A program made the translations under genes and the position numbers. Below the pieces are notes generated by a model. The model worked only from the letters and a program-made list of their open reading frames with translations, was not told the origin of the DNA and made no database searches. Shown here one piece after another: positions 29,956-31,788 of a DNA stretch of 64,000 nucleotides. Every line of letters begins with the position of its first letter. Within the stretch, counting starts at the first letter, position 1. This DNA comes from Escherichia phage NHEP29, in the sequence record PQ511150.1; one strand, written 5' to 3'.

Positions 29956-29971
29956 AGCTCCCGAAGGAGCT
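29956..29971 (-). other. UUCG-tetraloop hairpin overlapping gene 39 stop
   Basis: AGCUCC-UUCG-GGAGCU on transcribed strand; no clear U-tract. Confidence 0.35.
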
Positions 29972-31788
29972 TAGGACATCCATTCTTTACGAAGTTCTGA
30001 ATCATCACCCATCAACATTTCAAAGAGTTCTTTCCAATTTTCAGGAAGTTTAACTACGTCGTACACAGGGTTCTGAATCATTTCACGATATTCTGACTTT
30101 TCAAGGGAGCCCAATCCCTTGATGTATCGAATACTATGCTTAGGCAGTGTATCTTTAGCTTCTTCATACTCAGCTACAGTATAAAACCATTTTTGAGTTT
30201 TGCCAATTTGTGCAATAATTACGGGCGTTTTAACAAAGCGAATACGTCCTTGTTCAAACAGTTCAGGCCAATTACTAAAGAAAGCAAGCAAAGCCGGATA
30301 AATACTTCCAAGGCCGTCATGATCGGCATCGGTCATAATTGCAATATTACGATAGTTCGTATTCTCTGCCTTTTCACCAAGAATAAGACCTGTGATAGCA
30401 CAGATATCAAAGAGCTCTTTGTTCTTCATCATATCAGCATATGACATACCCCAGCTATTCATCACCTTACCGCGTAATGGGAATCCGCCGTGTAGTTCAC
30501 GGTCACGAACATCAATGAGATAACCAATTGCAGAATCACCTTCTGTTAAGAACAATGTCGTATCTGCATCTTTACCACATTGGTTAGCTTTAATATGCTT
30601 ATGAACCTTAGCTTTAGTTGCCTTTTTAGCTGCTTTAGTTTCTGCAGCCTTTTCTGCTGCCAATTTACGAGCTAATGCTGCTTCAACAATAGGCATAATC
30701 AAGGCTTCGTTTTTAAGAAGTGCCTGAGCAATTTTCTTAGCATCTAATTGGATATGATTACGAATATCACCATACGTTGACGTTAAACGTTCTTTAGTCT
30801 GAGAATCAAAACGCATGTTGCTCATGTCTCTAATAAACATCAACATTGTGAGGCATTCTTTAACACGAGCTTTAGTGACTTCAATACCCTTATATTTCTT
30901 TTTAATGCCGGGCAAAAGATGTTCGCAGATATCATCCATTACACATTCAACATGATGACCACCATTTTTAGTATGGATGTTATTCACATAAGTTAAATGA
31001 CGGAAGCCATCTGGTGATGTTGTGAATGCTATAGAGACTTTATCATTTTCTTGAATGATGTTATCTTCACCAAATTGTTTAGCAAATCGTTTAAAATTAC
31101 CATCAACCTTTTTACCATTAAATGTGAACTTGATATCAGGATAAACGACTGCCAATGTTTGAAGTCGGTCTAAAGTAATATCTAAATAAATTTGAGATAA
31201 ATTATTCTCTTCAAATGAAGTGAAATCAGGAGTGAAGATTACTTTAGTGCCTTTACCTTTAGATTTCTTAGAAGACCATGATTTGTTTTCCATTCCGTTT
31301 GAACAGTTAACAGTGATTTCATTTTCGCCATCTGACGTGATGCCTGTAAACAATGTAGAGAAGATATTAGTTAAACTACTCCCGACGCCGTTCATACCAC
31401 CAGTCTTGCGTTCAGAGTCATCGCCAAAGTTACCACCAGCCTTTGGAATAGTCCAGGCTGCTACAGGACCAGGAATTTGTTCACCCGTTTGGTCGGTAAC
31501 TAAACCTTGAGGAATACCACGTCCGTTATCTTCAACCGAAACTTGATTATTTTTAATTTGCACATCAATTTTATTTGCAAACTTAAATGATGTACGAATA
31601 GCTTCATCAACCGAGTTGTCAATAATCTCATCAATTAATTTAACCAGGCCAGGAACATATTCAACTTGTTGATATTTACCAAACAAAAAACGCTCGTGGG
31701 CTTCTTTAGCCGAAGAACCAATATACATACCACTACGTTTCTTAATATGTTCTACATCCGACAATACCTTAATTTCATTTTTAATCAT
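29971..31788 (-). CDS. 39: DNA topoisomerase II large (GyrB-like ATPase) subunit gp39, unsplit
   Basis: 605-aa continuous ORF; the C-terminal region that T4 encodes separately as gene 60 is fused in frame. Confidence 0.9.
   Translation of the reverse strand: MIKNEIKVLSDVEHIKKRSGMYIGSSAKEAHERFLFGKYQQVEYVPGLVKLIDEIIDNSVDEAIRTSFKFANKIDVQIKNNQVSVEDNGRGIPQGLVTDQTGEQIPGPVAAWTIPKAGGNFGDDSERKTGGMNGVGSSLTNIFSTLFTGITSDGENEITVNCSNGMENKSWSSKKSKGKGTKVIFTPDFTSFEENNLSQIYLDITLDRLQTLAVVYPDIKFTFNGKKVDGNFKRFAKQFGEDNIIQENDKVSIAFTTSPDGFRHLTYVNNIHTKNGGHHVECVMDDICEHLLPGIKKKYKGIEVTKARVKECLTMLMFIRDMSNMRFDSQTKERLTSTYGDIRNHIQLDAKKIAQALLKNEALIMPIVEAALARKLAAEKAAETKAAKKATKAKVHKHIKANQCGKDADTTLFLTEGDSAIGYLIDVRDRELHGGFPLRGKVMNSWGMSYADMMKNKELFDICAITGLILGEKAENTNYRNIAIMTDADHDGLGSIYPALLAFFSNWPELFEQGRIRFVKTPVIIAQIGKTQKWFYTVAEYEEAKDTLPKHSIRYIKGLGSLEKSEYREMIQNPVYDVVKLPENWKELFEMLMGDDSELRKEWMS

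Follow-up and report, generated by a model that had tools for sequence, protein, structure and literature searches.

Gene 39 of Escherichia phage NHEP29: a single topoisomerase reading frame without the gene 60 split or mobA of phage T4, next to a predicted glycosyltransferase gene

Mutations of phage T4 in genes 39, 52 and 60 cause a DNA-delay phenotype. The type II topoisomerase of T4 is the sole three-subunit case, the enzymes of phages T2 and T6 being composed of two subunits, and the insertion of approx. 70 amino acids (aa) in the T4 Toprim domain derives from a mobA insertion (PMC11461880). The MobA element has a size of approx. 1.1 kb, replaces 55 to 75 nucleotides (nt) of the topoisomerase open reading frame (ORF) and is inserted at aa 466-473 (bioRxiv 10.1101/2022.08.31.505936). 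The three-subunit form of T4 arose when this mobile cassette, i.e., the HNH homing endonuclease MobA together with a 50-nt translational-bypass element, was inserted into the Toprim-coding region. The unsplit state of gene 39 has been known in the literature for decades and has been restated, as a single ORF, in both publications cited above (PMC11461880; bioRxiv 10.1101/2022.08.31.505936). Here we analyzed gene 39 and its surroundings in a stretch of 64,000 nt from Escherichia phage NHEP29 (record PQ511150.1), referred to below as the window. An initial annotation of this DNA had described gene 39 as a single continuous 605-aa ORF, with no gene 60 split and no mobA, and this description was borne out by the ORF list, the alignments and a cassette search. 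In this phage, which its sequence places in the genus Mosigvirus, gene 39 is almost certainly in the ordinary state of a gene that was never invaded; it encodes an intact GyrB/ParE-like subunit and is followed by an unrelated downstream transferase insertion.

The topoisomerase genes of the window and the domains and motifs of the gene 39 product are as follows (residues are those of this product).

29971..31788, minus strand: gene 39, unsplit large (GyrB/ParE-like) subunit of a phage type IIA DNA topoisomerase, an ORF of 605 aa
aa approx. 47-190: GHKL ATPase domain (Pfam HATPase_c, E = 3e-11)
aa 54-62: N-box (Glu/Asn), EIIDNSVDE (motif match, as for the other motifs below)
aa 87-93: G1 motif, DNGRGIP
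aa 130-138: G2 motif or ATP lid, GGMNGVGSS
aa approx. 249-385: transducer domain (Pfam DNA_gyraseB, E = 2.7e-14)
aa 329-335: QTK loop, SQTKERL
aa approx. 411-604: Toprim plus Toprim-C (Pfam Toprim and TOPRIM_C, below the gathering cut-offs)
aa 415-420: Toprim E-GDSA motif, TEGDSA
aa 487-492: Toprim DxDxD motif, DADHDG
21571..22896, minus strand: gene 52, GyrA/ParC-like DNA-cleavage subunit of 441 aa, holoenzyme partner of gp39 (Pfam DNA_topoisoIV, E = 6.5e-78)

The 605-aa frame begins with an ATG, has a GAGGAG ribosome-binding site 6 nt 5' of this codon and contains zero internal stop codons and zero N. All ATPase, transducer and Toprim signatures sit on one chain of 605 aa, and the Toprim domain is contiguous, with the E-GDSA motif, the DxDxD motif and the C-terminal tail in one frame. 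The order of Pfam matches along the protein (HATPase_c, DNA_gyraseB, TOPRIM_C, Toprim, DNA_gyraseB_C) is the one expected for a GyrB/ParE-like protein, and in PHROGs the protein belongs to phrog_543, "DNA topoisomerase II large subunit" (E = 1.7e-287). Among solved structures, the top match was T6 gp39 (8ylu_C and five further entries; residues 1-605, 1165 bits), followed by the artificially fused T4 gp39-gp60 (8yo3_C), which was matched in two stretches. No evidence contradicting the assignment of gene 39 to a topoisomerase was found. With the GyrA-like gp52, encoded 7 kb off, the product would form an ATP-dependent topoisomerase of type IIA and A2B2 composition, comparable to the T6 enzyme of known structure (gp39 structures PDB 8ylu, 8yo1 and others; PMC11461880), and this enzyme would relax and decatenate phage DNA during replication. 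We infer this activity because the window protein is 83% identical to the structurally and enzymatically characterized T6 enzyme; ATP-dependent relaxation and strand passage are established for both the T6 and the T4 enzymes (PMC11461880).

The window protein was compared (BLASTP and MAFFT) with the T4 references from NC_000866, i.e., gp39 (516 aa) and gp60 (160 aa, joined over the 50-nt gap). The window frame is collinear with gp39 residues 1-473 followed by gp60 residues 27-159; window aa 1-474 match the former with 79% identity and window aa 473-605 match the latter with 88% identity. The last approx. 43 residues of T4 gp39 and the first approx. 28 of gp60, approx. 71 in all, have no counterpart in the window, and the alignment accordingly shows a gap of 71 columns in both the window and the RB69 protein opposite these two T4 extensions. 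At the DNA level (blastn), window positions 31860 to 30368 correspond to T4 positions 5406 to 3911 and window positions 30304 to 29977 to T4 positions 2794 to 2467, such that 63 nt in the window (30367..30305) stand against 1116 nt in T4; the latter comprise the gp39 tail, mobA/60.1, the gp60 head and the 50-nt bypass gap. These breakpoints agree with the published cassette size and replaced length (bioRxiv 10.1101/2022.08.31.505936). T4 and the window thus carry homologous enzymes with the same neighbors, but in T4 a 1116-nt insertion splits the Toprim domain, adds approx. 71 residues and encodes a decayed MobA, none of which is found in the window.

30305..30367, minus strand: empty cassette site of 63 nt, ordinary Toprim coding sequence (blastn breakpoints and codon comparison)

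Codons 474 and 475 of gene 39 flank the cassette junction (window positions 30367 and 30366), and the equivalent of the T4 bypass site is represented by two adjacent codons, 492 (GGC) and 493 (CTT), which meet between positions 30313 and 30312. Read codon by codon across the site, GEKA is followed by ENTNYRNIAIMTDADHDG and then by LGSIYP; the T4 GGA take-off glycine codon is GGC in the window, with CTT (Leu) directly after it. While T4 ribosomes must bypass 50 nt after the GGA take-off codon, there is no such need in the window gene. Neither an ORF for an HNH homing endonuclease (MobA) in the Toprim-coding region of gene 39, nor a 50-nt coding gap with a GGA take-off codon, adjacent stop codon, hairpin and GGA landing site, is present at this site. 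Comparison of the T4 cassette with the whole window (tblastx and blastn) revealed no MobA, no extensions and no bypass-gap sequence, the sole match being the topoisomerase-homologous part (cassette nt 999-1058, window 30372..30313), and the T4 50-nt gap sequence, sought with up to 12 substitutions allowed, gave no match. The parsimonious reading of the compared sequences is that gene 39 of the window was never invaded by the mobile cassette; ATPase gate, transducer and an undivided Toprim domain are all part of one polypeptide.

A single ORF could also be secondary, if an ancestral MobA/bypass cassette was excised and genes 39 and 60 were re-fused (the "hit and run" put forward for certain Aeromonas phages). 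Re-fused genes have indeed been described (bioRxiv 10.1101/2022.08.31.505936), and cassette-bearing Tequatrovirus phages share hosts with Mosigvirus phages. However, the described hit-and-run genes keep cassette-derived C- and N-terminal extension sequence at the site (bioRxiv 10.1101/2022.08.31.505936), whereas codons 470 to 495 of the window gene show no extra residue as compared to T2 and T6, there is no similarity to the extensions, and the ORF is as long as in T2 and T6. Moreover, the clean site is common to all approx. 154 close relatives. Re-fusion, including re-fusion after a perfectly clean excision, is therefore a very improbable origin of the window gene.

We also assessed how common the unsplit gene is among phages. 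A 4-kb query around the locus showed 98 to 99% nt identity over its whole length to approx. 146 Mosigvirus phage records; close relatives include NHEP11, ZQ3, mar005P1, APCEc01 and HY126, and the type member of the genus is RB69. On this sequence evidence, the window phage is a Mosigvirus, i.e., an RB69-like T-even phage. A gp39 homologue was detected (tblastn) in 1960 phage records, and in 1824 of these a single place accounted for 80% or more of the protein. When 40 records, evenly spread, were sampled, the gene was split in three pieces over approx. 2.85 kb in only two (vB_EcoM_CE1 and Aeromonas AS-gz). The T4 cassette was found at a coverage of at least 80% in 41 records, and those listed were all T4 or close Tequatrovirus; a few diverged copies of the cassette occur in Salmonella phage S16 and in Proteus and Acinetobacter phages. 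Single ORFs of 605 to 612 aa were also found in three further genera, represented by Tegunavirus phiR1-RT, Klebsiella phage Roth34 and a Lazarusvirus. Unsplit gene 39 is thus the norm and T4 the exception, with a single ORF in T2, T6, RB69 and the great majority of the approx. 1960 records. The initial annotation had described the locus by its departure from T4; the T4 split is real, but it is T4 that is exceptional.

The same records bear on the possibility that the continuous frame is an artefact of assembly or sequencing, or that gene 39 is a pseudogene. A 281-nt query spanning both junctions was uninterrupted in 207 of the 212 matching phage records, 154 of which were at least 95% identical, while in the cassette-bearing Tequatrovirus HY03 the match broke at window position approx. 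30371. In 113 records, the encoded protein shows an identity of 99% or more along 100% of its length. A frameshift or stop codon that resequencing might bring to light has in effect been looked for in approx. 150 independent genomes, in which the junction is uninterrupted. All catalytic motifs are intact and the ribosome-binding site is good. Errors in this region are not unheard of, as the RB69 reference has small ones in the 5' end of gene 39 (see below), but no other support for an artefact or a pseudogene was found, and either is extremely improbable. Re-fusion after cassette loss and a sequencing artefact were both considered and rejected on the evidence of the extensions, the relatives and the motifs.

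The closest described proteins are those of T2, T6 and RB69. Like the window protein, T2 and T6 gp39 have 605 aa and the same domain order, and they align over their full length with 82.8% aa identity (MAFFT); flanking synteny is the same, with 39.2 and goF upstream and rIIA.1 and rIIA downstream, and the gp52 partner is present in the window. Differences are one-residue indels (the window protein has an extra Gly at aa 302 and no C-terminal Gln), an nt identity of approx. 75% for gene 39, and the presence of a transferase gene between gene 39 and rIIA.1, which in T2 and T6 follows gene 39 directly, with no glycosyltransferase gene. RB69 gp39 (RB69p004), from the same genus, shows 96% aa identity, and the locus order rIIA, rIIA.1, ORF003c, 39 and its spacing are identical to those of the window; the RB69 reference order is rIIA, rIIA.1, ORF003c (366 aa), 39, ORF005c, 39.2-like, goF, cef. 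The RB69 reference protein differs in its length of 606 aa and in aa 14-45, which are garbled by small indels, while the window agrees with T4, T2 and T6 there. In the RB69 record (NC_004928.1, 5340..5483), the first approx. 140 nt of gene 39 differ from the window by several small indels and transpositions. Judged from these sequences, the discrepancies are most likely errors in the RB69 record; similar sequencing errors have been reported for RB69 genes 46/47 and 52/53 (PMC13326640).

The second part of the initial annotation placed a glycosyltransferase in the space adjoining gene 39, instead of the T4 genes. The relevant features are the following.

28828..29928, minus strand: GT-B fold glycosyltransferase of 366 aa, homologue of RB69 ORF003c/gp3 (ORF, PDB match, Foldseek)
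28535..28735, minus strand: rIIA.1, 66 aa (Pfam T4_RIIA1, E = 2e-30; synteny with T4, RB69, T2 and T6)
26309..28522, minus strand: rIIA, 737 aa, synteny landmark (ORF; named rIIA in 98%-identical records and RB69)

The gene in question does encode a glycosyltransferase, judging by its fold and its 99% identity to 9ir0/9iqz, while "instead" did not stand. On a coarse map, the interval from the 5' part of gene 39 to rIIA.1 contains the transferase gene in the window and mobA/gene 60 in T4, which would allow the literal interpretation that the transferase gene occupies the mobA/gene 60 site and replaced these genes. In the DNA alignment, these are two distinct indels. The cassette site is internal to the ORF (30305..30367). 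The transferase insertion, in which 1232 nt of the window (29976..28745) stand against 51 nt of T4 (2466..2416), follows the stop codon of the complete topoisomerase gene and precedes rIIA.1, the gene that comes directly after the topoisomerase gene in T4, T2 and T6. "Instead" is misleading because the transferase gene is not at the mobA/gene 60 site and because T2 and T6 are unsplit without having a transferase; these two phages lack both cassette and transferase. In addition, the topoisomerase gene of Acinetobacter phages KARL-1 (NC_049441.1) and AC4 (OL770262.1) carries a diverged mobA-type cassette, while two transferase homologues lie elsewhere in these genomes; as the phages hold both, the mobA-type cassette and the transferase are independent features. 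Replacement of mobA by the transferase gene is thus refuted by the DNA alignment, and the chance that it occurred is negligible. More generally, the interval between gene 39 and rIIA is variable across genera, containing small ORFs or, in Lazarusvirus, RnlB. The arrangement in the window would represent an unrelated, lineage-specific insertion carrying a GT-B glycosyltransferase, placed downstream of gene 39 after a hairpin. Scans for terminator-like structures and stem-loops identified the following elements around these genes.

31838..31853, minus strand: GC-rich UUCG-tetraloop hairpin upstream of gene 39
29955..29972, minus strand: hairpin with a UUCG tetraloop that overlaps the TAA stop codon of gene 39, with a T-rich run behind it (terminator-like scan; fold -11.4 kcal/mol, z = -2.0)
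28745..28830, minus strand: strong stem-loop in the spacer between the transferase stop codon and rIIA.1, with perfect arms of 11 bp (GGCACTATTAC and GTAATAGTGCC)

Gene 39 is therefore bracketed by two GC-rich UUCG hairpins (31838..31853 and 29955..29972). The hairpin between gene 39 and the transferase gene resembles an intrinsic terminator or an RNA-stabilizing hairpin. The stem-loop at 28745..28830 folds with -25.5 kcal/mol (z = -4.4), and none of 200 shuffled sequences was as stable; candidate roles are a terminator, a processing site or an insertion scar.

The identity of the 366-aa protein was investigated further. It is identical at 361 of 366 positions to PDB entries 9iqz and 9ir0, "phage HY126 glycosyltransferase", the latter with uridine diphosphate (UDP) bound; HY126 itself is among the close Mosigvirus relatives of the window phage. 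An AlphaFold model based on an alignment of 14 sequences had a predicted local distance difference test (pLDDT) value of 91.9 and a predicted template modelling score (pTM) of 0.88; an alignment of 6 sequences had yielded an unusable model (pLDDT 56.8), and distant representatives were added for the larger one. The top Foldseek matches of the model in the PDB were 9ir0_A and 9iqz_A (99% identity, template modelling scores of 0.96 to 0.97), followed by tetrahydrobiopterin glucosyltransferase, PimA, BshA, MshA and WaaG (GT-B/GT4); 343 PDB matches had E values of 0.001 or lower, and the best 50 of these 343 were all sugar transferases of GT-B type. R208 and E281 are invariant and G20 is nearly invariant over 14 family members, and these residues are the counterparts of the nucleotide-sugar contacts of GT-B type described for ORF003c (PMC6024577). 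By sequence and structural model, the 366-aa protein is a UDP-binding GT-B glycosyltransferase. Its relationship to the alpha- and beta-glucosyltransferases of T4 is no more than distant (approx. 10% identity; PMC6024577).

The transferase family, to which RB69p003 also belongs, is very small, with 5 clusters in an index of 5.8 billion proteins and 12 members when 1.8 billion representatives were searched in full with a HMMER profile; as just 12 members were found, no deep alignment or wider phylogeny of the family was possible. Only two remote members touch the Pfam families Glycos_transf_1 or Glyco_transf_4. The family is confined to Mosigvirus (155 records, at least 95% identity) and to Acinetobacter T4-like phages (approx. 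43% identity, two copies per genome). The Acinetobacter homologues, e.g., gp76 and gp77 of phage DLP3 (approx. 43% identity to the window transferase), lie within the arabinosylation cluster, whereas in Mosigvirus a single copy, exemplified by the UDP-cocrystallized HY126 protein and RB69 gp3, adjoins gene 39, approx. 21 kb away from that cluster. One side observation concerns Shigella phage JK45 (MK962757.1, 830..1440), in which a partial tandem duplication repeats the last 494 bp of the transferase gene; the repeat is joined to the initial five codons of rIIA.1, and the resulting ORF is annotated with 136 aa. The JK45 record is classified as Tequatrovirus, yet this region is approx. 98% identical to Mosigvirus genomes.

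The window also carries a complete RB69-type gene cluster for 5-hydroxy-dCMP (5hodCMP) and UDP-arabinose, flanked by uvsX and the DNA polymerase gene.

50164..56711, minus strand: 5-hydroxy-dCMP and UDP-arabinose gene cluster (Pfam, correspondence to RB69 gp45-55)
50714..51613, minus strand: candidate first arabinosyltransferase, 299 aa, corresponding to the proposed RB69 first transferase (no Pfam match)
51613..52329, minus strand: ThyA-like 5hodCMP synthase (Pfam Thymidylat_synt)
52608..53768, minus strand: U32-family protein (Pfam Peptidase_U32)
54209..55894, minus strand: NTP-transferase/kinase, 561 aa (Pfam NTP_transferase)
56076..56711, minus strand: SIS isomerase (Pfam SIS)
48893..50065: uvsX, cluster flank (Pfam)
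56752..59463: DNA polymerase, cluster flank (Pfam DNA_pol_B)

The roles given here follow those of RB69 gp45-55 (PMC13326640); the cluster also holds ORFs of 182, 299 and 133 aa without assignment. By analogy with RB69, we propose that this cluster, at 50 to 57 kb, supplies the base and the sugar donor for the 366-aa transferase.

ORF003c was proposed as the RB69 arabinosyltransferase by Thomas et al. 2018 (PMC6024577). Lee et al. 2026 revised the RB69 modification to mono- and di-arabosylated 5-hydroxycytosine, rather than arabinosyl-5-hydroxymethylcytosine (hmC), and proposed that gp46:47 carries out the first transfer and gp3 the second; in their in vitro work, RB69 DNA received arabinose from UDP-Araf when the Acinetobacter homologues, gp76 and gp77 of DLP3, acted in combination (PMC13326640). 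By analogy with these systems, the 366-aa transferase is proposed to attach the second arabinose, with arabinosyl-5-hydroxycytosine of phage DNA as the acceptor, the literature basis for this role being PMC6024577, PMC13326640 and PMC13390438; both the acceptor and the sugar (arabinose from UDP-arabinose) are predicted from the same analogy. Several observations weigh against this assignment. Neither Pfam, in which the 366-aa ORF has no match, nor PHROGs, in which it belongs to phrog_8302 of unknown function, gives a functional name; the single purified DLP3 transferases were inactive alone (PMC13326640); and the literature consulted reports no activity of RB69 gp3 itself. We suggest that the ORF be annotated as a putative DNA arabinosyltransferase, as most of the 98%-identical GenBank records say "hypothetical protein".

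Other features of the window were examined as well. A scan for sigma-70 promoters found 11 sites, as compared to 12.4 expected from shuffled sequence, i.e., no better than chance, and neither the Rfam nor the tRNA scan of the 64 kb gave a match. Directly upstream of gene 39, in place of T4 39.1, a 141-aa ORF (31852..32277, minus strand) represents a homologue of RB69 ORF005c (phrog_622, unknown function), the last approx. 40 residues of which are weakly similar to a goF-type family (phrog_13003, E = 3e-6). Further upstream (33741..35182, minus strand), three adjacent paralogous ORFs of 139, 172 and 164 aa share a C-terminal motif, ISDQWVEDG-KLYNIVF-G-F-VV, and correspond to the MotB-like genes of RB69.

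None of the approx. 154 Mosigvirus genomes has the MobA/bypass cassette, despite having E. coli hosts in common with cassette-bearing T4-like phages and a similar target, the empty-site stretch at 30305..30367 being identical to T2 at 49 of 63 nt. One may speculate that MobA nicking of the site, or its recombination with glucosyl-hmC phages, is prevented by arabinosylated 5-hydroxycytosine DNA or by divergence of the target, although we consider this rather unlikely. If true, DNA modification, including the second arabinose added by the neighboring transferase, would impede the passage of homing endonucleases from one T-even genus to another. The transferase gene lies apart from its pathway cluster, between hairpins and directly behind an early replication gene, and this position could mean that it was acquired separately and is expressed at a different time.

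Unsplit gene 39, the cassette specific to T4, and the identity, fold, proposed role and map position of the neighboring transferase have all been published already, and the finding on gene 39 matters little beyond correct annotation. The neighboring transferase is the more topical of the two, as part of the recently revised DNA hypermodification of RB69 type. For the T-even phages as a group, the split topoisomerase of T4 and its ribosomal bypass are the lineage-specific result of a mobile-element insertion and not a general T-even trait, as comparisons of T4 with T2 established earlier and recent surveys have extended.

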